A stretch of DNA of 64,000 bases from a virus: the IMG/VR virus record IMGVR_UViG_3300045988_095676, positions 26,969 through 90,968 of that record; one strand, written 5' to 3'. Made by a program: the position numbers and the translations under genes. The notes under the pieces were generated by a model, which saw only the letters and a list, made by a program, of their open reading frames with translations, ran no database searches and was not told the origin of the DNA. Below, one piece after another: positions 2,428 to 41,008 of the stretch (position 1 is the first letter of the stretch; every line of letters starts with the position of its first letter).

Positions 2428-2497
2428 CGGTACATATTTTGTGTAAAGTGTTAATTATCTCGGTGTTTGCGGTGTGTGAACATAGCAAACATTAAAT

Positions 2498-5633: not shown

Positions 5634-6056
5634 ATGAAGATAAACTTTTTAAGCAGTAAAACCTATGTAGGTTCTAAGACAAAAGAAGCTAAAATCAGAA
5701 AGCTTTCTATTAGCAAAGATCGGATTATGACCATATCGGTGGACAATCTGAAATGGATGGGTATCGAAGATGCGGTTATTATTGGTATGGAAGAAGGAGC
5801 TGAGTTTAAAGGGGTGTTGGATTCTAATTTGTATATAGCTCCTTCTAAGGTAGAAGACGAGAGATCGTTTTTATTAAATAAACAAGGTGAGAAATATAGA
5901 CGTATTTACCTCCGTGATGTACTGTCTTCGTTAGGTTGGGATATCGGTGATAATCAGTATGCGGTTTATGATATTGTGAAGGTTAAGGACGAAGATGGTG
6001 TGTTCTGCCTGGTTCCGAGAGAGATTAAGAAAAGTAAGTTTGAGAAAGGAGAATGA
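5634..6056 (+). CDS. hypothetical protein
   Basis: ORF track. Promoter-like box upstream. Confidence 0.65.
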   Translation: MKINFLSSKTYVGSKTKEAKIRKLSISKDRIMTISVDNLKWMGIEDAVIIGMEEGAEFKGVLDSNLYIAPSKVEDERSFLLNKQGEKYRRIYLRDVLSSLGWDIGDNQYAVYDIVKVKDEDGVFCLVPREIKKSKFEKGE

Positions 6057-6057
6057 T

Positions 6058-6936
6058 ATGGTACAAGATATTGATATAAAATCCAAACGAATATTATTGT
6101 TTGATTTTGATGGAACGCTTATAGAAACCGCTTCTGGGAATACGTTCGCTACAGACTTGACAGATATGAGGATTAAGATGGATGTGGTGAATAAGGCTCT
6201 TGACCTCATGCAGGAGAACGGTGTTAAGGTATTTGCTATCGTAAGCAATCAAGGAGGAGTAGAAGCTGGGTTTGTTTCTGGAGCTGATATTGAAGCTAAG
6301 ATAGAATACGTACTGAGGTCCGTACATGATCTGGCGGTAAAGAGAGGTATAAGAGGCGTCCTATATGAAAAAAGGTTGTGTTATTCAAATGACGAACAAA
6401 ATCCGATGAGGAAGCCTAATACGGGCATGATTGATGATATTCTTATGAAGTGTAAAGACACGGTAATGCGCGGTATGAACTTCAGTCAACTTAAGGGATG
6501 TTCGTTGATGGTCGGGGACGCCAGTGGTCTGCCAGGGCAGTTCTCTGATTCGGATAAGGTATGTGCCTATAATTCCGGTATTAACTATATGGATATTACT
6601 ACATTTTTGGATAAAGATCTTGATTTAGAATATGTATTGTCCAAAGAACATACAAGTGAAGGAATAGTTATTCTAAACAACGATCATATATATATCCTTG
6701 AAAATCCATATGGGGTTGGTCTTAATATAAAAATCACTTTAAAAGATTTTTATAAGATTGAAACCGATGATGGAAAAACTGCAACCGTAGATGATGTGCT
6801 GAATATAAGGATTGATAAAGATCAGAATTTTAATTCATATAGTGATGTTATAAAAATAGAAACATTAAAAGACGGTAGTATCAAATATACAAGCTTATAT
6901 CATGAAAGTAAAGAAAACAGCGATAGTTTATCATAA
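6058..6936 (+). CDS. HAD-superfamily phosphatase (polynucleotide 3'-phosphatase / GmhB-like) with unknown C-terminal domain
   Basis: HAD motif I LLFDFDGTLIE, motif II VSNQGG, Lys motif MRKPNTGM, motif IV MVGDASG. ATG 6058 lies 1 nt after the upstream stop. No kinase P-loop. Confidence 0.7.
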   Translation: MVQDIDIKSKRILLFDFDGTLIETASGNTFATDLTDMRIKMDVVNKALDLMQENGVKVFAIVSNQGGVEAGFVSGADIEAKIEYVLRSVHDLAVKRGIRGVLYEKRLCYSNDEQNPMRKPNTGMIDDILMKCKDTVMRGMNFSQLKGCSLMVGDASGLPGQFSDSDKVCAYNSGINYMDITTFLDKDLDLEYVLSKEHTSEGIVILNNDHIYILENPYGVGLNIKITLKDFYKIETDDGKTATVDDVLNIRIDKDQNFNSYSDVIKIETLKDGSIKYTSLYHESKENSDSLS

Positions 6937-7858
6937 ATCGGATTTAGATGGCGTTGTATCGGCAGCCATCGCAACCATGTACGAAAACAGTAAAAACAAG
7001 GATGTTGTTTATATCCCGTATTCGTATGAAGATGATGTTAAGAAAGTTGTTGACCAAGTACGTGACTTAGATGTTGTTTATGTTCTTGACGTGTCTTTTG
7101 GAGCCGATTCTAAAACTGTTTTCAAAAAGTGGCTTGATGAAGGGAAGAGCCTGATGTGGATAGATCACCACAAGGGAATTATTGAGGACAGTAAGACATG
7201 GGGGTTCGTAGTTCCAGGGTTGAGGAGGGTCGGTGTCGGTGCGTGCGCTCTGGCTTCGGACCTGCTTATGGGGAAGGTGCCGGCGATCGTCCGATGCCTG
7301 TCAGACTACGATGTGTGGAATAAAGAATCTGGCTTAGGCTGGGATACGGTAGTAGCTGTCCAGTATGCCTTGAGATCAAAAATAAGACTCAATGTATTGA
7401 TTGCATTGTCGTATTTATATGATCACTTTAAAGAAAACATGAAAGACAATGAAATTGATCTTATTTTTTATGATCTTGCTAAAGAAGGACGTGCTATAAT
7501 TAATTACATGGCTTGTAAAAACGAAGATGAGGTAAGTAGGTACTCGTTCGAAGCTTACGTCGACGAGGTTAAGGTTATGGCTATGAATACCGCTGAATTT
7601 AGCTCTAAGGTATTTGATTCTCTTACACCGGACTGGTTAGACGGTAGAAAAATTAAAGCCCTGATGCCATTTTGTATCATGCCATGTGGAAAAGTTAGGT
7701 TCTCTCTTTACGAATGCGTAGAAGACAGCGTAGATTGCTGTGAGGTAAGTAAGAGATTCGGTGGTGGAGGACATGCTGGTGCTGCTGGATTCGTTATAGA
7801 CGTATCAAGTGACCAGTTTAAGGACTTCCTTGAAAGTAAAAAACTTTTATCGAAATGA
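6902..7858 (+). CDS. DHH/DHHA1-family phosphoesterase (NrnA/RecJ-like)
   Basis: Motifs HKSDLDGV, DVSF, WIDHHKG (DHH) and GGGGHAGAAGF (DHHA1 GGGH). Confidence 0.8.
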   Translation: MKVKKTAIVYHKSDLDGVVSAAIATMYENSKNKDVVYIPYSYEDDVKKVVDQVRDLDVVYVLDVSFGADSKTVFKKWLDEGKSLMWIDHHKGIIEDSKTWGFVVPGLRRVGVGACALASDLLMGKVPAIVRCLSDYDVWNKESGLGWDTVVAVQYALRSKIRLNVLIALSYLYDHFKENMKDNEIDLIFYDLAKEGRAIINYMACKNEDEVSRYSFEAYVDEVKVMAMNTAEFSSKVFDSLTPDWLDGRKIKALMPFCIMPCGKVRFSLYECVEDSVDCCEVSKRFGGGGHAGAAGFVIDVSSDQFKDFLESKKLLSK

Positions 7859-9398: not shown

Positions 9399-9960
9399 CA
9401 AGGCACGGAGAGCGCCGTTAAGCTCTCCAAAGGTTTGACGCGTACCGTTAAACGCGTCTGTACGCCGTTGTCAGTGGGTGCACGTCCCGCGTATGCTTTA
9501 GACTGAAGCTGACAAAACAGAGAGTTATTTTACATATTGGAGATAGATATACCGGTATCGAGGCCGTTGGCAATTAAAAATACGGTATTGCTGCATGAAC
9601 TGCACTAAATAAGTGTGGTTTATGTTAGGTATGTTAGTACAGTTTGGAAAACATACCGTTGTACGCGGTTTATCTCCAGACCGAAACGTGTCTTACTTGC
9701 CTACACGTAAAATAGGACAAGGCTGTAGATTAAATTACAGGGTATAAACATGTAGCCTACCATGTAGGAGCGTGATATATCAAAGCGCAAGGACACAATC
9801 GCCTTTATTTGTGGCTAAGTTGTGTAGCAGACGGAAAATATAATAACAACATAGTACGAGCCTGTACGCAAGAACTACGTACTAATTACGGGCTGTTGGT
9901 TGTAGCATAAAATCTCTATAGGATAGGAATGCGTGTCCGGTTCGATTCCGGAGCAACCTC
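9399..9960 (+). ncRNA. candidate large structured non-coding RNA ending in a tRNA/tmRNA-like T-arm
   Basis: No ORF. Many local hairpins, five CCGTTR motifs, an 8-bp long-range pairing (9538-45 with 9671-78) and a 3' end tccgg-ttcgatt-ccgga-gcaacc. Confidence 0.35.
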
Positions 9961-9983
9961 TAAATTATAAATAATATAATAGC

Positions 9984-10154
9984 ATGGAAAAGAAAGCAAT
10001 GATCAACGCTTTAATTGAAGCGTTCAATAAATCTAAAAACAGTTGCGTAAAAATAACATTGCGTAACTATATCGAGACGGTGGAAACATTGAGCGAAAGT
10101 GAGTACAAAGAGGCGGAAGGTTTCTATATCGAAGCACTTAACCGCTGGAGTTAA
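9984..10154 (+). CDS. hypothetical protein (56 aa, below the ORF-track cutoff)
   Basis: Hand-translated ATG..TAA ORF MEKKAMINALIEAF...NRWS. Confidence 0.45.
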   Translation: MEKKAMINALIEAFNKSKNSCVKITLRNYIETVETLSESEYKEAEGFYIEALNRWS

Positions 10155-10176
10155 TCATAATTAAAGCATAAAGAAA

Positions 10177-10383
10177 ATGGAAAGGAAATTTAAATCTTAT
10201 ATGGTAGACGTCCGCGGTCTGTCCAGGAAAGAAGCTAAAGAAAAGCGGAAAAGAGCGTATCGGGAATTTATGTTGTATCGTGATCTCAAAGAAGCGTATC
10301 ATGCCGATACAGGAAAGGACAAATGCAAACGTAAAGTCCATACATCACGAACATACGTGAAAGAAAACATAAACAGTATTTAA
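10177..10383 (+). CDS. small basic hypothetical protein
   Basis: ORF track, followed directly by a strong terminator. Confidence 0.55.
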   Translation: MERKFKSYMVDVRGLSRKEAKEKRKRAYREFMLYRDLKEAYHADTGKDKCKRKVHTSRTYVKENINSI

Positions 10384-10391
10384 ATAGGGAT

Positions 10392-10426
10392 AGGGTTGTT
10401 CCGAATATCGGAGCAGCCCTATTTTT
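10392..10426 (+). terminator. intrinsic terminator
   Basis: 12-bp stem agggttgttccg/cggagcagccct (two G-T pairs), 5-nt loop, then ATTTTT. Confidence 0.75.
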
Positions 10427-10488
10427 GTATCCTACTCTTTCTATTTACGGGTAGGATATTCTGAGAGTGAACGGCGGATGTAAGCTAT

Positions 10489-10581
10489 ATTGGTCTAAAA
10501 CGAAACTAAAATATGAGAGTTTGGATACAATGCCGGTATTTTGTCTATATCATGTCGTTGAAATTGGTCTAAAACGAAACT
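10489..10581 (+). repeat. 19-bp perfect direct repeat ATTGGTCTAAAACGAAACT, two copies
   Basis: Copies at 10489-10507 and 10563-10581 (74-bp period). Confidence 0.85.
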
Positions 10582-10583
10582 TT

Positions 10584-10629
10584 AGGCGGTTTTCTGACCC
10601 AAAATAGGGCGTCGGATGCCGCCTTTTTC
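10584..10629 (+). terminator. terminator-like hairpin with internal sub-hairpin
   Basis: aggcgg...ccgcct stem enclosing ccc-aaaata-ggg, followed by TTTTC. Confidence 0.5.
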
Positions 10630-10754
10630 GTCTCTATGGATTGAAAATTAGGCTTATTGTACTTTTCTTAAAAATAAGGTATGCTTGATTATCAATTAGT
10701 TAGGTTTTATGATACCCGTATTTTCGGACACACTTATTGTAAATTTTTTATTTT

Positions 10755-10922
10755 ATGTGGTGGTTTTTATTAGTAGCTGACCTGTATTTTTTATCGGTTG
10801 GAGTAAGGTCTATGTTGGAGTACGGACCGGATCAGTATAATATTGTAATGGTCTTTTGCTTTTCTTTATTGGCTTTGATTATAGGCTTAAATATCTATCT
10901 TGATAGGAGGAGCAGGCGGTAG
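10755..10922 (+). CDS. small membrane protein (55 aa, two hydrophobic helices)
   Basis: Hand-translated MWWFLLVADLYFL...LALIIGLNIYLDRRSRR, TAG stop. Below the ORF-track cutoff. Confidence 0.4.
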   Translation: MWWFLLVADLYFLSVGVRSMLEYGPDQYNIVMVFCFSLLALIIGLNIYLDRRSRR

Positions 10923-11110
10923 GGCGTGGGCTGAAGGCTCTCTATTCTCTCTATGGAATGATATTATCTCTAAATACCCCATACTTCATGCCAGAGTATA
11001 AGCTTGTAGCGCTCTCCGTATGCCGGTAGTGAGGCCGAGAGCGCAGGTTCTATGCGGAAAGCCGGAGGATTAGCCGGGGTTGGAGAGGGGGAGAGGGAGG
11101 GCACTCCCTA

Positions 11111-11250
11111 CCAACAAAATTCAATAGATAAGCGTTTTAAAACAGTGTTCTGTAGATCATTTCCACAAAATTCAATATGATAAGGGTTTAAAACAGCATT
11201 ATATAGGTTCCTTCCAACAGATTAAGGGTTGAGGACTGCATTATGTGAGT
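11111..11250 (+). repeat. three imperfect tandem repeats (core ATWAAGSGTTTAAAACAG..TAG), period about 52 then 42 bp
   Basis: Cores start at 11128, 11180 and 11222. The first two units also share ACAAAATTCAATA. Confidence 0.7.
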
Positions 11251-11285
11251 ATTTTTTTTTAAGCGGGATGTTTAACAATTAAAAT

Positions 11286-11555
11286 ATGGATGGTATGAAC
11301 GTATATGACTTTGCGCCTGACTTAGATTTGAGTAAGGAGGTAGAAGGTTCTATTTTCGGGGTAAAAGGAATAGAAGGCAGTGATGGAATAGTATATGCTA
11401 AGGTAGTTAGCTGTGTAGACGTTAAGGATTACAGTTGTGATAGGTGTATTTTTTATGATTGTTATAAGGATAAATGTTTATTATCGCGTAGTGATAGTTG
11501 TATAGATGGAGATTGGATTTGTAGGTACGAACAGGCTGCCATAGAGGGGGAGTAG
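11286..11555 (+). CDS. Cys-rich hypothetical protein
   Basis: ORF track, preceded by the same 19-nt element as the 8859 gene. Confidence 0.65.
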   Translation: MDGMNVYDFAPDLDLSKEVEGSIFGVKGIEGSDGIVYAKVVSCVDVKDYSCDRCIFYDCYKDKCLLSRSDSCIDGDWICRYEQAAIEGE

Positions 11556-11744: not shown

Positions 11745-11787
11745 GTGAGAAAAATTTCTTCATTAATTTTCTTATGCTTTAGACAGA

Positions 11788-11815
11788 ATGCTCCCATCTG
11801 CGAAGATCGGAGCAT
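11788..11815 (+). promoter_or_regulatory. conserved-loop hairpin B
   Basis: 7-bp stem atgctcc/ggagcat, 14-nt loop catctgcgaagatc. Confidence 0.6.
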
Positions 11816-11823
11816 TTGCTTTA

Positions 11824-11868
11824 TGGGATTCATGGTGCAGCAAGTCGGTTCGATTCCGGCGATCTCAC
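11824..11868 (+). ncRNA. tRNA-like acceptor/T-arm minihelix (not a full cloverleaf)
   Basis: Acceptor tgggatt/gatctca (7 bp including G3:U70), 13-nt linker, T-arm gtcgg-ttcgatt-ccggc. No D or anticodon arm. Confidence 0.4.
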
Positions 11869-11891
11869 ACAACATTAAAATAGGGAAGAAC

Positions 11892-12296
11892 ATGTTAAAA
11901 GAAGAATTTGAAGAACTGATTAAAAGGGAGGTAAACGAAAATCAGTATAAAAACATAGAAACGGCATACGAGGCTTTGCCGGAGTATATGGATAAGATGT
12001 ATTTAGCAAGTGCTATTTCAAATGATATTGGGAAAGCTATTAATGTCTTATCGTTTTTAGGATCGCATATAAGCGAGTTAATGGGTTCGATAATAATCGA
12101 AAGGCAAAAGGTGGAATCATGTGCCTATGATTTAATAAACAAATCGCATGAGGAGGATGACTTGAAAGCAAGAGAGATTGCCGTGCGATTAATAGGAGAG
12201 AGGGAAACAGTGGCATACACAGTAAAAGAAGGGCTGCCATTGTGGGAACAAGATAAAAAGTTTATAATAGAATTAATAAAGGAGGATAGAAAATGA
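11892..12296 (+). CDS. hypothetical protein
   Basis: ATG 11892 inside ORF 11745..12296. The upstream part of that ORF overlaps the RNA elements. Confidence 0.65.
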   Translation: MLKEEFEELIKREVNENQYKNIETAYEALPEYMDKMYLASAISNDIGKAINVLSFLGSHISELMGSIIIERQKVESCAYDLINKSHEEDDLKAREIAVRLIGERETVAYTVKEGLPLWEQDKKFIIELIKEDRK

Positions 12297-12622
12297 AAGA
12301 CGGTATTGTATTGCATCCAGAGCATGGGTTGAATCCATCCATAGAACTATGCATAGTATGCGGTGAAGAGATGGGGATTGCTTTATTAGGGAATAACATC
12401 AAAGGGCAGGCGCCGCATCATATATGCACGGGAGAAATATGTGACAATTGCAAAAAGATAATAGATGACGGAGGTTGTTTTATTATCGAAGTTGAGGATG
12501 GATCAGATCAAAAGAATCCGTATCGTACAGGGAGATATTGCGCGATAAAGAAAGAAGCAGCAAAGAAAATACTTGGACAGGAGCATAGTATTGTGTACAT
12601 GGAAAAGTCTGCGTACAGTTAA
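12293..12622 (+). CDS. zinc-ribbon hypothetical protein
   Basis: ORF track, CIVCG...CDNC cysteine pairs, ATGA overlap. Confidence 0.65.
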   Translation: MKDGIVLHPEHGLNPSIELCIVCGEEMGIALLGNNIKGQAPHHICTGEICDNCKKIIDDGGCFIIEVEDGSDQKNPYRTGRYCAIKKEAAKKILGQEHSIVYMEKSAYS

Positions 12623-12648
12623 ATAATACCACAAAAATAAAGAAAGAT

Positions 12649-12963
12649 ATGTTTGCAAAAGAAGAGCGATTATTCATATGGAAAAAGGTATATGAGATGA
12701 TTGATAGGTTAGAGGATGGGGAATACATATGTGTTGCGTTAAGAAATGTAGTGTTTATGTATTTCAAAACACATAAAAATATCTATGAGTTTCGTTCAGA
12801 CGAAATGGTGAGAATATATTTCCCGGAATTGGAAGAGAAGATAAGTATGGCCACAGAACCAGAGGAAACAAGAACGTTTTATGGGTGGTTTGGTTGTCTT
12901 AGTCCAGAAACGAAGGAGGTAAGGCTGAATATTGTGAAAGATATTATAAAAGAATTAGAATAG
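12649..12963 (+). CDS. hypothetical protein
   Basis: ORF track. Confidence 0.6.
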   Translation: MFAKEERLFIWKKVYEMIDRLEDGEYICVALRNVVFMYFKTHKNIYEFRSDEMVRIYFPELEEKISMATEPEETRTFYGWFGCLSPETKEVRLNIVKDIIKELE

Positions 12964-13009
12964 TATTTTTGTTAATCTATTTTATTCATCAAATTAAGTT
13001 TTGGGTTTT

Positions 13010-13039
13010 GGCATGTCGGTTCGTGAGGATAGGCATGCC
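13010..13039 (+). promoter_or_regulatory. conserved-loop hairpin C
   Basis: 6-bp stem ggcatg/catgcc. The 18-nt loop tcggttcgtgaggatagg matches the hairpin E loop at 14 of 18 positions. Confidence 0.6.
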
Positions 13040-13056
13040 TATTTCTGCATCATAGA

Positions 13057-13117
13057 GGGGATGACGCGGCGTGCCGGTGCGTATGTGCCGGTCCTGGTTC
13101 GATTCTGGGCATCTCAC
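13057..13117 (+). ncRNA. tRNA-like acceptor/T-arm element (not a full cloverleaf)
   Basis: ggggatg/catctca pairing (6 bp including G3:U70), 29-nt GC-rich linker with a gtgccggt direct repeat, T-arm cctgg-ttcgatt-ctggg. Confidence 0.35.
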
Positions 13118-13491: not shown

Positions 13492-13746
13492 ATGACAGAG
13501 AATAGTATATACGTAAATATCGTACCTGTAAAGAATGGTATGAAACGTGTTGTGGTATCATATTACCATTATTCACGCAAGGAGAAAGATCGCATGAGTT
13601 CCCAAACGGATTACGTTTGGGAAACAAAGAATGAAGAAATGTTTAAATACTTTGAGGCCAGGAGGACAAAAGTATTTTATAGTCAGATTCGTGCCATGTG
13701 TAGATTCTATGGCAAGAAAAATGTACGTAAATACAAAAAGTTATGA
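13492..13746 (+). CDS. hypothetical protein
   Basis: ORF track. Confidence 0.6.
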   Translation: MTENSIYVNIVPVKNGMKRVVVSYYHYSRKEKDRMSSQTDYVWETKNEEMFKYFEARRTKVFYSQIRAMCRFYGKKNVRKYKKL

Positions 13747-14552
13747 TATTAAAAACGACAACCAACGAGTTTTGTTTCATTAACGTAAGTTTCTACGAAA
13801 CAATAGCAGATCCTCGTCATTTCTTTGAACAGGATTATGAAGAGATGCCAGAATATGAGGAGGAATCGGATTTTGATTTTGATTCTTATTACAATAAGTT
13901 TATTCCTTTTGTACAGGAATGGGCGAATGAGGTAAGTGAACGCCTTTACGGATATGGCGTGAATAGTATAAAGGTAACATCGGTCGGATATCCGAAAGAA
14001 TATAATTATGGTACTGATTGGATGAACGTAGAGGTAGAGTTTTGTGATGAATGGAGGCAAAAGATGTTATCTAACATTAGTAAGATTGTCAATGATGATA
14101 AATGCAAGAAGTATGCGGAGACTAATTACCGGTCGGTATCAGGATACATCTTTTTAGGACCTGAAGATTTAAAGGAATTTGAAAAGGAAATAATAGAAAG
14201 AAAGTCGGATTCCGGATATGATGTAACAATATTATTAAATATGTATCTAACTTTGGCTTTTGTAAAAGAATTTGGATTTAAAGCCGGAGAAGCATGGAGT
14301 GAAATAACAGAATATGCTTACGGATGTTTATCGTATTCCGATTTTGCAACAACAGAGATGCTTATACCGGAAGGTTCGGAGCATTTATTCAAAGACATTT
14401 ACACGGCAAAGGCCGACGAATTATATCATCATGTCCTGGATAAATTCGGATGGGCGTGGCGTGATCCGAAATATAAGTCAGAAACAGAATTATGCGCGAT
14501 GCTAAAGTGGGCAAAAGAAAAAGGCTTGACCATTGAAGAGTTAAGTATTTAA
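13743..14552 (+). CDS. acidic hypothetical protein
   Basis: ORF track, ATGA overlap. Confidence 0.7.
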   Translation: MILKTTTNEFCFINVSFYETIADPRHFFEQDYEEMPEYEEESDFDFDSYYNKFIPFVQEWANEVSERLYGYGVNSIKVTSVGYPKEYNYGTDWMNVEVEFCDEWRQKMLSNISKIVNDDKCKKYAETNYRSVSGYIFLGPEDLKEFEKEIIERKSDSGYDVTILLNMYLTLAFVKEFGFKAGEAWSEITEYAYGCLSYSDFATTEMLIPEGSEHLFKDIYTAKADELYHHVLDKFGWAWRDPKYKSETELCAMLKWAKEKGLTIEELSI

Positions 14553-26251: not shown

Positions 26252-26863
26252 ATGAACAATTTTATAATAGATACTCCAGATAATTTCTGGCAAATAAGAT
26301 GGCTTGACAAATATATGGAAGGTCACAAGGGGTTCATAGCTGGTGGATGTTTTAAGAATATCCTTTCCGGAGAAAAAGTAAAAGATATTGATATTTTCTT
26401 TGAAAGCGAAGACGATTTTCAGGAAGCTGTTGATTTGTTCAATGATGAAAAACATCAGAAAGAAGGATGGAAATTTAAGTACAGGAATGAGAAGGTATGT
26501 GCGTTCCATAAAGAGGGAGAAAGGGTATGGATAGAGTTCATAGAGTCAGAGTTCGGAAAGCCTGAAGAGATTCTCAGGAGCTTCGACTTTACTGTGGCAA
26601 AAATGGCTTACTACAAGGAGCCTAAATACGAAGAAGAGGAAGATGATTATTTTCCATTCTCATCTGCAAGTATAGTAGCATACGAGTACAAACTACTCTA
26701 CCATGAGAAATTCTTTGAACATCTTCATATGAAGAGGCTGGTCATTGATGAAAATATTCCTTTTCCAGTAAGCACATGGGAACGCTCATATCGGTATAAA
26801 GGATATGGTTACAATATGTGCCGGGAGACAAAGAAAAACTTCTACAGGCTCTTAAAGGTGTAA
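26252..26863 (+). CDS. Pol-beta superfamily nucleotidyltransferase, CCA-adding/poly(A)-polymerase head-domain-like
   Basis: IAGGCFKNILSGEKVKDIDIFF fits the GG-x-x-[RK]-[DN]-x-L-x-G...DxD signature of tRNA nucleotidyltransferase/PolyA_pol heads. At 203 aa it is only a minimal enzyme. Confidence 0.55.
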   Translation: MNNFIIDTPDNFWQIRWLDKYMEGHKGFIAGGCFKNILSGEKVKDIDIFFESEDDFQEAVDLFNDEKHQKEGWKFKYRNEKVCAFHKEGERVWIEFIESEFGKPEEILRSFDFTVAKMAYYKEPKYEEEEDDYFPFSSASIVAYEYKLLYHEKFFEHLHMKRLVIDENIPFPVSTWERSYRYKGYGYNMCRETKKNFYRLLKV

Positions 26864-26903: not shown

Positions 26904-27371
26904 ATGGGATTAACCTATAAAACAAAATTGCTTATGAAAACATTAGAACAACTTAAAGAATTAACATCAAAATGTTTAGACGGTAGAGATTTTAACAGAC
27001 TGGCTAAATTTGTTCCATATAGCATGATAAAGGATTTCGGTATGGAGCCGAATGAAGAATATGACAACGAGGAAAAGTGGAACAGTACTGTAGTTGAATT
27101 TACCAGAGAAAATGTCCTGAAACAGCTTGAAGAAGACGTAAGATTCGGTTTTGAAAAGGCATTAAATCAGAGAGGAATATCAGCCAGTTTGATGTTTGAA
27201 TGTGTGATGATGTGGAACTACATTCTGGAAGAAGGTCTTGAAGGCTGGGGTGAGGATGATTATGCATTTTATGGACTCCCTCTATTTAAAGCTACGGCTG
27301 TAAAATATGGATGGGACAATCCGATAGGGGAAGACAGCGGGAGAGAAAGAAAATATGATTCACAATATTAA
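26904..27371 (+). CDS. hypothetical protein
   Basis: ORF track. An alternative ATG at 26934 is possible. Confidence 0.6.
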   Translation: MGLTYKTKLLMKTLEQLKELTSKCLDGRDFNRLAKFVPYSMIKDFGMEPNEEYDNEEKWNSTVVEFTRENVLKQLEEDVRFGFEKALNQRGISASLMFECVMMWNYILEEGLEGWGEDDYAFYGLPLFKATAVKYGWDNPIGEDSGRERKYDSQY

Positions 27372-39742: not shown

Positions 39743-41008
39743 AATAAAATTGAAATTTCAAATAGTAAAATTGATTGATGAGATTGGTTGAAAAACATAT
39801 TATTAAAGATAACAGATTTGAAGATATTTGCCTCAAATCAGGATTGCTATATAATTATGTCTTGTATAATGCGCGTAAAGGTATCTTCAATAAAGAATAT
39901 CTGAATGAATATGAATTTTCAACCAAACTTTGTAGAGAAAATCAATTTGATTTCAGGAATTTGCCCACTTCTGTTTCTCAACAAGTAGTTGGCCAAGTTT
40001 TTAAAAATATAAAATCATGGATTAGACTCAAGAAGGATTTTGAAAACAATCCTTCCAAATACGATAATTGTTGTCCTCATCTACCTTCGTACAAGAAAGG
40101 CAAGAAACAGAACATGGTTGTGTTCACAACTTCTGCTTGTAGGCTAAAGAAGGATGGTTGTATTCATTTTGTTAAAAATATAATTCAACCAATTAAAACT
40201 GAAATAGGAGATAGTAAATTATGTCAGGTTAGAATCATTCCACAATCTACATGCTATGTGGTTGAAGTAATTTATGAAAAGAAAGAACATAATCTAAGTC
40301 TTGATAAGGATAATGTTCTTTCGATTGATTTAGGATTGAATAATTTATGTTCATGTATCAGCAATGCCGGATTGGTTCCTTTCATTGTAAACGGGCGGAT
40401 TATGAAATCTTTTAATCAGTGGTACAATAAGAGGAAAGCTAAGTTAATGTCTTATGTTGGAGGTAAGGGTACTTCTGAAAGACTTAGACAGCTAAATAAT
40501 TATAGGAATTTTTGGATAGAAGACTACATCCACAAGGTTAGTCGATATATTGTCAATTATTGTATTACTAACAACATTGGTAGTATCGTAATAGGTTTAA
40601 ATAAAGGATGGAAACAAAAGATTAATCTTGGAAAGAAGATTAATCAAAAGTTTGTTGAAATACCTTTTTCAAGACTTATAGACAAAATATCCTATAAATG
40701 TAAGTTGGTAGGTATCAGCTTTCAAATTAATGAAGAATCCTATACATCAAAGGTTGATCATTTAGCTTTTGAGAAATTAGGGAAGCATGATGTTTACTTA
40801 GGCAAAAGAAAGAAACGTGGATTATTCCAAAGCTCAGTTGGAAAGTTGTTAAATGCGGATATCAATGGAGCTATTGGGATAGGTAGAAAAGTATTCGGTG
40901 ATTCATTTGTAAACATGATAATCGATAGTGGGTTTGCGTTTAACCCGATTAGAGTAAACATTTTGTAATATAGATGTGAATTTAATGAATAAAATTTAAA
41001 ATTTTAAT
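39743..41008 (+). mobile_element. solo tnpB insertion (IS200/IS605-family remnant without tnpA)
   Basis: The tnpB gene is bracketed by imperfect AT-rich direct repeats AATAAAATTgAAAtTT (39743-39763) and AATAAAATTtAAAaTT (40988-41008). It is lower in GC than its neighbours, and there is a palindrome ttgaaatttcaa at the left edge. Confidence 0.5.
39778..40968 (+). CDS. tnpB: TnpB-like RNA-guided-nuclease family protein (OrfB), RuvC triad present, zinc finger absent
   Basis: RuvC-I SIDLGLNN, RuvC-II EESYTSK, RuvC-III NADINGAIGI. There are no CxxC pairs between II and III. Confidence 0.8.
   Translation: MRLVEKHIIKDNRFEDICLKSGLLYNYVLYNARKGIFNKEYLNEYEFSTKLCRENQFDFRNLPTSVSQQVVGQVFKNIKSWIRLKKDFENNPSKYDNCCPHLPSYKKGKKQNMVVFTTSACRLKKDGCIHFVKNIIQPIKTEIGDSKLCQVRIIPQSTCYVVEVIYEKKEHNLSLDKDNVLSIDLGLNNLCSCISNAGLVPFIVNGRIMKSFNQWYNKRKAKLMSYVGGKGTSERLRQLNNYRNFWIEDYIHKVSRYIVNYCITNNIGSIVIGLNKGWKQKINLGKKINQKFVEIPFSRLIDKISYKCKLVGISFQINEESYTSKVDHLAFEKLGKHDVYLGKRKKRGLFQSSVGKLLNADINGAIGIGRKVFGDSFVNMIIDSGFAFNPIRVNIL

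Follow-up and report, generated by a model that had tools for sequence, protein, structure and literature searches.

The DNA window analysed here comprises 64 kb (positions 26,969 to 90,968) of the IMG/VR virus record IMGVR_UViG_3300045988_095676 and is part of a human-gut phage of approximately 150 kb. Its early region is 93% identical to 'phage csAssE-Sib' (OR575929.1), whose annotation over the corresponding stretch consists of hypothetical proteins only. From 0 to about 54 kb the + strand carries nearly all open reading frames (ORFs), and the GC skew is positive over the same span. At 2283-2645, ARAGORN and Rfam identified four real tRNA genes for Met, Gln, Arg and Cys. Further downstream, three short tRNA-like elements are located on the + strand, each between a hairpin and the start codon of the next gene: element 1 at 11824-11868, element 2 at 13057-13117 and element 3 at 9897-9960. 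Elements 1 and 2 had been proposed in an original prediction, and their positions and sequences were confirmed, as were the hairpin upstream and the gene downstream of each. Element 3 is a third copy that was absent from this prediction. We are highly confident that all three are conserved structured tRNA-like RNA elements.

Element 1 is a minihelix that consists of an acceptor stem, a T-arm and the discriminator base C11868, without CCA. Its 5' strand UGGGAUU (11824-11830) pairs with the 3' strand GAUCUCA (11861-11867) at seven of seven positions, including G3:U70 and U7:G66. The T-arm GUCGG-UUCGAUU-CCGGC occupies 11844-11860, and the linker of 13 nt (CAUGGUG...) includes a GG. Element 2 combines an acceptor stem, an inner hairpin, a T-arm and the discriminator C13117. 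Full acceptor pairing had been proposed for both elements. This holds for element 1, but within element 2 the 5' strand GGGGAUG (13057-13063) and the 3' strand CAUCUCA (13110-13116) form only 6 bp (13058-13063 with 13110-13115), as position 1:72 is a G.A that stays unpaired in every relative. The T-arm CCUGG-UUCGAUU-CUGGG is located at 13093-13109, and the linker of 29 nt is made up of the 9 nt ACGCGGCGU and, for the remainder, the inner hairpin (13073-13092; 8 bp, tetraloop). Element 3 again shows a 6-bp acceptor stem, GGUUGU/GCAACC (9898-9903 with 9953-9958), a linker of 32 nt folded into an irregular central hairpin with a 5-nt loop (9905-9932), the T-arm UCCGG-UUCGAUU-CCGGA (9936-9952) and the discriminator C9960. 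With 13, 29 and 32 nt, the linkers offer no room for both D and anticodon arms, which confirms what had been stated for the first two elements. Furthermore, all three possess a T54-U55-C56-R57-A58 loop with a 5-bp T-stem on the acceptor stem, and the T-arm motif GGTTCRANYCC is present in them as GGTTCGATTCC or GGTTCGATTCT. CCA is encoded by none of the elements and by none of the real tRNAs. In predicted structure, the elements are three members of a conserved family that mimics the 'top half' of a tRNA, in which the acceptor is stacked on a canonical T-arm and a short linker with a GG, in some cases with an additional hairpin, takes the place of the D and anticodon arms.

Four copies of the exact 10-mer GGTTCGATTC are present in the window, always on the + strand (in tRNA-Cys and in elements 1, 2 and 3), compared to 0.07 copies in shuffles. 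A relaxed scan of the window for a T-arm with acceptor complement delivered 8 sites versus 1.5 in random sequence. These sites are the four tRNAs, the three elements and one likely chance match, and no further copies were found. When RNAs of processed length are folded, elements 1 and 3 adopt the proposed structure as their minimum-free-energy fold (-10.1 and -17.4 kcal/mol, respectively). Given the many G.U pairs, the folds exist in the + strand RNA only, and all neighbouring genes are encoded on this strand too.

The original prediction had named standard tRNA finders and Rfam models as a check, and none of them made a default call at any of the three elements. Default ARAGORN detected neither a tRNA nor a transfer-messenger RNA (tmRNA) there, its mitochondrial (D-armless) mode made no calls, and the Rfam tRNA model gave no match at the three elements, neither at the gathering score nor at E up to 10. 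With the Rfam tmRNA models only local T-arm matches of 15-17 nt were obtained, scoring 9.6-9.9 bits versus the 47-84 bits needed, and there was no tag ORF. YrlA or Y RNA gave no Rfam match, and no TROVE match was found among the subset of ORFs that was scanned. Judged by these sequence models, the elements are placed outside the tRNA, tmRNA and Y-RNA families as Rfam defines them.

The hairpins in front of the elements had been described as a conserved-loop family. The leader hairpin of element 1 (11786-11817, + strand) has a 9-bp stem with a C.C mismatch, a 4-bp tip and a GCGA tetraloop, is followed by UUUGCUUUA, and ends 6 nt before the element. For element 2 (13010-13039, + strand) we found an 8-bp stem with a G.A mismatch, a 4-bp tip and a GUGA tetraloop, separated from the element by 17 nt. 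The leader hairpin of element 3 (9852-9884, + strand) has the outer stem UAGUACG/CGUACUA. Its loop bases 9859-9864 are complementary to 9889-9894, a pairing that is kept to 98.7% in relatives and that represents either a pseudoknot or an alternative structure competing with the hairpin. The real tRNAs are preceded by such hairpins as well. One is located on the + strand at 2245-2276, with a GUUA loop that is GUGA in relatives, and ends 6 nt ahead of the tRNA-Met/tRNA-Gln pair (2283-2427), and another at 2462-2493 (+ strand, GUGA), 4 nt before the tRNA-Arg/tRNA-Cys pair (2498-2644/2645). Both are long, with one internal mismatch and a 4-bp tip as before the elements, and both are conserved in relatives. 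Since one of them stands between two tRNA pairs, termination of a protein gene would not be a sufficient explanation for it. A simple promoter and terminator scan found nothing specific at the modules of hairpin and element. Downstream, tRNA-Cys ends 16 nt before ATG 2661, and the distances from the element end to the next ATG are 23 nt for element 3 (9984), 23 nt for element 1 (11892) and 21 nt for element 2 (13139). Thus, a repeated unit on the + strand comprises a hairpin with a GNRA-type (or similar) loop, 4-17 nt, a tRNA or its mimic, 16-24 nt and a start codon, and the conserved-loop hairpin family is the leader of tRNA and tRNA-like units.

To follow the elements through related phages, a pattern search with GGTTCGATTCNNNNNATCTCAC was performed in IMG/VR, which matched more than 114 contigs, mostly with two matches per contig. 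A sample collected in this way is biased by its own pattern, and hence 80 loci were gathered via the neighbouring protein (13743-14552). This protein-anchored search gave close relatives only, with at least 90% identity (90-100%). The elements were collected by regular expression and BLAST and subsequently aligned per family, resulting in 26-30 distinct variants per element. A joint covariance model was dropped because MAFFT could not align the variable linkers in one model. The AUCUCAC 3' strand was built into the search pattern and is not claimed as a hallmark of the family.

Among the 80 protein-anchored loci, element 1 is retained in 75, element 2 in 73 and element 3 in 44, the lower count of the latter probably being limited by flank length. 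Standard pairs make up 98.7% of the stem cells of the alignment for element 1, 97.0% for element 2 and 96.7% for element 3, compared to at most 54% if the partners are slid by 1-3 columns. Across relatives, the acceptor of element 1 is paired to 99.5% and its T-stem to 98%. Its leader hairpin is paired in 98.5% of the cells and shows compensatory double changes at three pairs among 30 distinct relatives (A:U to G:C, U:A to C:G and C:G to A:U). The leader of element 2 is paired in 99.7% of the cells, and five of its pairs vary one-sidedly between G:U and G:C or A:U. For element 3, both the T-stem (C:G to U:A) and the central hairpin show compensatory changes, and the count of five pairs with double changes was reached by none of 500 shuffles. 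In the outer stem of its leader, two compensatory double changes were found in one relative (L059).

The remaining variation also follows the proposed structure. In about 240 copies, variation of the T-loop is confined to R57, N59 and N60, the positions that are free in tRNAs; a U55 to C change in L083 is the single exception. Within element 2, approximately 17 of about 22 variant types keep the pairing of the stems according to a hand tally, and the G-run at the 5' end comprises between 3 and 6 residues. Copies of element 2 that lose the 7:66 pair (C66 to A) always carry U48, which pairs with A66, so that the stack stays at 12 bp, built as 6+6 and not as 7+5. In two loci (L040, L071) the inner hairpin of element 2 is cleanly deleted and the rest is retained. 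Part of the linker of element 1 varies freely, and the acceptor, the T-arm and the GG of the linker are retained. Such a GG, 3-5 nt past the acceptor, is kept in element 1, element 2 and the distant elements described below, and it may mimic G18-G19 of the D-loop.

Two readings of the conserved blocks were considered and rejected. The first assumes a coding function: an open frame continues from element 1 into the next gene, but this does not apply to element 2, and the substitutions track RNA pairing. As a separate observation, the frame of the gene starting at ATG 11892 (ORF 11745-12296) is open upstream across the hairpin and the minihelix of element 1, and ATG 11823 is in frame with ATG 11892, which is probably chance, though an N-terminally extended product is possible. 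In OR575929.1 (148558-148716; 2541-2699 of our locus L001), a hypothetical protein of 52 aa (WOZ57404.1) is laid over the hairpin and the minihelix of element 2, most likely a spurious gene call on structured RNA. The second rejected reading takes the elements as cassette boundaries or recombination sites. Genes between elements 1 and 2 are gained and lost as whole genes among relatives, with a spacing of 504-2209 bp. The spacing thus shifts with whole genes, but except in one chimera the breakpoints lie away from the elements. This chimera (L097, at about 817 on the reverse strand) joins the 5' half of element 1 to the 3' half of element 2 and has a broken T-stem. It looks like a loss of the intervening genes through recombination in the shared GGTTCGATTC.

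The same design was found beyond the close relatives. In unrelated, more GC-rich phage contigs (L035/L196 and L182/L184), a stop codon is followed by a long hairpin, a minihelix, 24 nt and an ATG. Their acceptors read (C)GGGAUG/UAUCUCA-C or GAGAUG/CAUCUCA-C, and their T-stems differ. Another contig (L189) carries the element UGGGGUU/AAUCUCA with a long inner hairpin, L181 a further element of T-arm and acceptor, and L038 (11011) a fourth type with the acceptor GGGACG/CGUCCC. A scan with other T-loop variants gave few true elements (L181, L182/L184, L189) amid chance matches, and a scan demanding the tail CACGCAAG gave four loci only. Two peculiarities of these contigs were observed. In L184 (2694-2769), and also in L182, an odd tRNA-like gene with an encoded CCA is located 40 nt past the minihelix, where it extends into the beginning of an ORF. 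The ARAGORN label of this gene is tRNA-???, with an 'anticodon' of 2 nt. On the reverse strand of L181 a second T-arm, GCGGG-TTCGATT-CCCGC, is situated about 90 nt before the first and about 150 nt upstream of the minihelix, without an ARAGORN tRNA call. Consequently, L181 may carry tandem tRNA-like elements.

We also searched GGTTCGATTCNNNNNATCTCAC in 185,579 bacterial and archaeal species, each represented by one genome. There were 61 matches and no tRNA gene among them. The single true element belongs to a phage-like contig of 3.9 kb (L152) that was binned in a metagenome-assembled genome of Veillonella sp., which is a weak hint toward the host. In addition, the window has strong Shine-Dalgarno sequences, which speak more for a host of Firmicute type than for one from the Bacteroidota.

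What might such elements do? For bacterial RNase P, RNase Z and the CCA-adding enzyme, minihelices of acceptor and T-arm suffice as substrates. We give an even chance to the reading that elements 1 to 3 are the phage counterpart of the t-elements of plant mitochondria, namely punctuation signals for RNase P and RNase Z. In this scenario the early region would be transcribed into a long polycistronic RNA. Host RNase P, for which the acceptor/T-arm stack alone suffices, could cut at the 5' end (+1) of the mimic, and the upstream mRNA would thereby keep a stable hairpin at its end as a barrier to 3' exonucleases. RNase Z would cut after the discriminator C73, because no CCA is encoded, and would leave a short 5' leader on the downstream mRNA. 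A tRNA-like RNA of 45-65 nt lacking CCA would be released, which could then receive CCA from the CCA-adding enzyme of the host or from the nucleotidyltransferase-like protein of the phage. Transcription through the elements, both cleavages, the protection by the hairpin and the CCA addition are steps that we infer. The conserved pairing, the retention, the layout shared with tRNAs and the copies in unrelated phages support this processing function, as do the excess of the T-loop 10-mer, the dispensable middle between constrained ends, and the lack of encoded CCA in a phage that has a nucleotidyltransferase-like ORF. Of the three roles that had been proposed (processing signal, substrate or decoy, degraded tRNA), punctuation fits best, given that real tRNAs share the layout and that 21-24 nt separate the elements from the start codon.

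However, several points weigh against processing by RNase P and RNase Z, or against the evidence on which it is built. The U-rich tracts after the leader hairpins of element 1 and tRNA-Met could terminate transcription ahead of the element. Folded together with longer flanks, the elements give a weak thermodynamic signal (z about 0), and the proposed fold of element 2 lies 1.7 kcal/mol above the minimum, with its T-stem of two G.U pairs outside the minimum-free-energy fold. Covariation in the minihelices of elements 1 and 2 is one-sided only (between G:U and G:C or A:U), and because of this one-sidedness the shuffle control of element 2 is not significant. The relatives are close (90-100% identity), so that shared ancestry explains part of the conservation. 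Finally, a pure processing signal leaves unexplained why GGGAU/AUCUCA-C is shared by element 1, element 2 and distant elements while the T-stems differ.

This last point leads to a second scenario, in which the released minihelix RNAs act in trans as substrate, sponge or decoy for proteins that read acceptor ends. Candidate targets are alanyl-tRNA synthetase (AlaRS) via G3:U70, the CCA-adding enzyme, EF-Tu, and anti-phage toxins that modify or cleave the acceptor ends of tRNAs. Such a role is compatible with processing, and we consider it possible, if rather unlikely. GGGAU/AUCUCA-C is common to element 1, element 2 and the distant L035 despite differing T-stems and linkers, although the AUCUCAC strand was imposed by the search pattern. 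The 1:72 position is mismatched or weak in all of them, and the GG of the linker could form a tRNA elbow with the T-loop. Furthermore, the phage possesses genes for tRNA repair or maturation, namely a PNK3P homologue (5995-6936) and a nucleotidyltransferase-like ORF, and the tRNA region of phage T4 also yields small RNAs, RNAC and RNAD, with unknown role (PMC3014915). The original prediction had emphasized G3:U70 as alanine identity element. The pair is indeed frequent (29 of 30 distinct variants of element 1 and 27 of 30 of element 2), but it is replaced in some copies, by G:C in L016 and L061 and by A:U in the L067 type, L184 and L181, and it is missing from element 3, where 3:70 is G:C, which weakens the AlaRS idea. 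The acceptors of element 3 and L038 are different. In addition, the discriminator C73 and the 1:72 mismatch are not alanine-like, and C73 together with a missing 1:72 pair is poor for AlaRS. The regular 21-24 nt to the start codon points to a role in cis, and no own promoter is evident. One might go further and speculate that the type of elements 1 and 2, once CCA-tailed by the enzyme of the host or the nucleotidyltransferase of the phage, would mimic acceptor ends by its G3:U70, open 1:72 and C73, and would be charged by, or titrate, a reader of acceptor stems such as AlaRS or an anti-phage toxin of the host that acts on tRNA 3' ends. It would then represent an RNA-based device for counter-defence or hijacking that has spread across unrelated phages via the common acceptor GGGAU/AUCUCA-C, but this we regard as doubtful.

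Another explanation would be that the elements are tRNA pseudogenes with a deleted middle, drifting without function. The phage has tRNA genes of the same layout, the T-arms are tRNA-derived, and a deletion between direct repeats GCCGGT is seen in element 2. Moreover, identity alone is no proof of selection among close relatives. However, three independent elements keep acceptor strands complementary across 33-55 nt, elements 1 and 2 are retained in 73-75 of 80 loci while flanking genes turn over, and most variant types of element 2 keep their pairs. The changes of the T-loop are, bar one, permitted in tRNAs, and the same design recurs in unrelated phages. Thus, degraded tRNA genes, the third role formerly proposed, may describe the origin of the elements and not their present state, in which variation obeys tRNA rules, and decay without function appears improbable to us.

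Comparably improbable is that the element stays attached in cis as a structured 5' or 3' end of an mRNA, where it would stabilize the transcript or tune its translation. The constant distance of 21-24 nt to the start codon would fit, as would ORF 11745-12296, which is open across element 1 with ATG 11823 in frame with 11892. A base-paired 5' end, generated by RNase P alone, would also resist 5'-end-dependent decay. However, a simple stabilizer needs neither a canonical T-loop nor a 12-bp stack, real tRNAs, which are necessarily excised, occupy the same position before genes, and element 2 is out of frame with the downstream gene.

It is very unlikely that the elements function at the DNA level, either as cores of phage attachment sites (attP) derived from the 3' end of a host tRNA or as hairpin promoters or origin signals. 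Attachment sites often contain the 3' half of a tRNA (PMC9897764), and the elements are near a largely non-coding region and the end of the linear record of a relative. In contrast, an attP core needs the 3' half only, yet the 5' strand is conserved and there are three copies per genome. Stems rich in G.U would become C.A on the other strand, and no integrase was found among the ORFs examined in a check that was not exhaustive. The attP variant was rejected, since none of the 61 matches among the species genomes is a tRNA gene.

The original prediction had named an intron-containing tRNA fold as the outcome that would speak against it. With introns allowed, ARAGORN did report such a fold for element 2 and its hairpin, 13009-13117 as tRNA-Val(gac) i(33,21), but not for element 1, where no call was made, or for element 3, which, like L184, L189, L181 and L038, gave conflicting isotypes and intron sizes, at lowered thresholds except for L181. 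We judge these calls to be artefacts. The known tRNA introns of bacteria and phages are group I introns of hundreds of nt, and we know of no bacterial splicing route for an insert of 21 nt. Hence, that element 2 and its hairpin form a tRNA-Val GAC with a long variable arm and a 21-nt intron, and that the others are similar split or intron tRNAs, is hardly credible: the variation among relatives fits this fold equally well (98.9% paired), but it is not called without the intron option or by the Rfam tRNA model (E up to 10), has to accommodate a C.C mismatch within the acceptor as well as a D-stem of 3 bp, two of which are G.U, and is at odds with L013, which keeps the minihelix without the hairpin half, and with the complete tRNAs of the same genome, which have a separate upstream hairpin of the same kind.

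Turning to the neighbourhood, the proteins next to the elements gave no functional clue in Pfam or PHROGs. The nucleotidyltransferase-like ORF mentioned above (26252-26863, + strand, 203 aa) is predicted to adopt the head-domain fold of class II enzymes (CCA/A-adding enzymes and poly(A) polymerase). Sequence support is weak (Pfam PolyA_pol head, E=0.056). The AlphaFold model has a pLDDT of 79, and its top Foldseek matches in the PDB are A-adding and CCA-adding enzymes and E. coli-type poly(A) polymerase (E about 3e-4, TM 0.45). The homologue in OR575929.1 is annotated as 'polyA polymerase / CCA-adding enzyme'. More than 1,100 metagenome homologues were found, all with a precomputed assignment to PF26128, a family that was not reported by our Pfam scan. 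At a distance of a few kb from the tRNAs, the homologue of the PNK3P-type polynucleotide kinase 3'-phosphatase (5995-6936) shares an overlap with a DHH/DHHA1 phosphoesterase (6902-7858). This pair (5995-7858) may serve RNA repair, although an RNA ligase was not identified. Within the region of replication genes, ORF 39775-40968, possibly an insertion element, matches the PHROG transposase family phrog_506 (E=1e-35).

The stretch 9400-11300 is largely non-coding and rich in structure, and it is possibly a regulatory, origin or terminus region. It comprises a direct repeat, TTGGTCTAAAACGAAACT, at 10490-10507 and 10564-10581, and strong terminator-like hairpins at about 10390-10425 and about 10606-10625. 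The linear record of a related phage, as deposited, stops at approximately position 10466 of the window.

If punctuation by RNase P and RNase Z turns out to be true, a large human-gut phage group, together with some unrelated phages from the environment, would organize early expression as mitochondria do, with real tRNAs and stripped-down mimics as punctuation for host RNase P and RNase Z. Bacterial viruses would thus use tRNA mimicry in mRNA maturation. This would explain conserved 'intergenic' blocks that are called as small hypothetical proteins, such as WOZ57404.1 over element 2, and would add an RNA family that Rfam lacks and that tRNA finders overlook. The elements would furthermore be natural minimal substrates for tRNA-processing enzymes, and the question would arise whether CCA-tailed minihelices have a second role as decoys.

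In the literature we found no description of T-arm/acceptor minihelices placed between phage genes, and no matching Rfam family. RNase P cuts the precursors of the phi80 M3 RNA, the P1/P7 C4 RNA and the P4 CI RNA. RNAC and RNAD of T4 (PMC3014915) are likewise phage non-tRNA RNAs made or matured via the tRNA-processing machinery. However, T4 RNAC and RNAD as well as the RNAs of phi80, P1/P7 and P4 have other sequences and folds, and none is described as an intergenic minihelix of T-arm and acceptor. YrlA (PMC4201824) is a non-coding RNA with a T-arm, a mimic of the D-arm and an acceptor-like stem, and it is sometimes phage-encoded. In contrast to the elements, a long Ro-binding stem replaces its anticodon arm, and it is linked to the Rsr/Ro gene.

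From a structural perspective, the closest known systems are the tRNA-like domain of tmRNA and laboratory minihelices. The minihelices and microhelices used as substrates of RNase P, RNase Z, CCA-adding enzyme and AlaRS share the 12-bp coaxial stack and the T-loop, whereas the phage elements are natural, reside inside mRNAs and carry a bulge of 13-32 nt between positions 7 and 49. The tRNA-like domain of tmRNA also comprises an acceptor and a T-arm without an anticodon arm, has G3:U70 and a reduced D-loop. Its halves, however, are about 300 nt apart, with pseudoknots and a tag frame in between, and tmRNA has G1:C72 and A73. Functionally, the t-elements of plant mitochondria are closest; they are reportedly treated by Hanic-Joyce in 1990 as well. 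T-elements carry GGTTCRANYCC and determine mRNA ends; RNase P and RNase Z cut them out, and the small RNAs released in this way gain non-encoded C and A (Forner et al. 2007, PMC1920247). They differ from the phage elements in being organellar and mostly cloverleaf-like and in lacking a GNRA leader hairpin, and cleavage of the phage elements is so far presumed. Nevertheless, both combine a non-canonical tRNA-like fold with a perfect motif of the pseudouridine arm and an acceptor-like stem. T-elements adjoin mRNA ends, as the phage elements would, and real tRNAs serve the same purpose at other mitochondrial genes, as they may in the phage.

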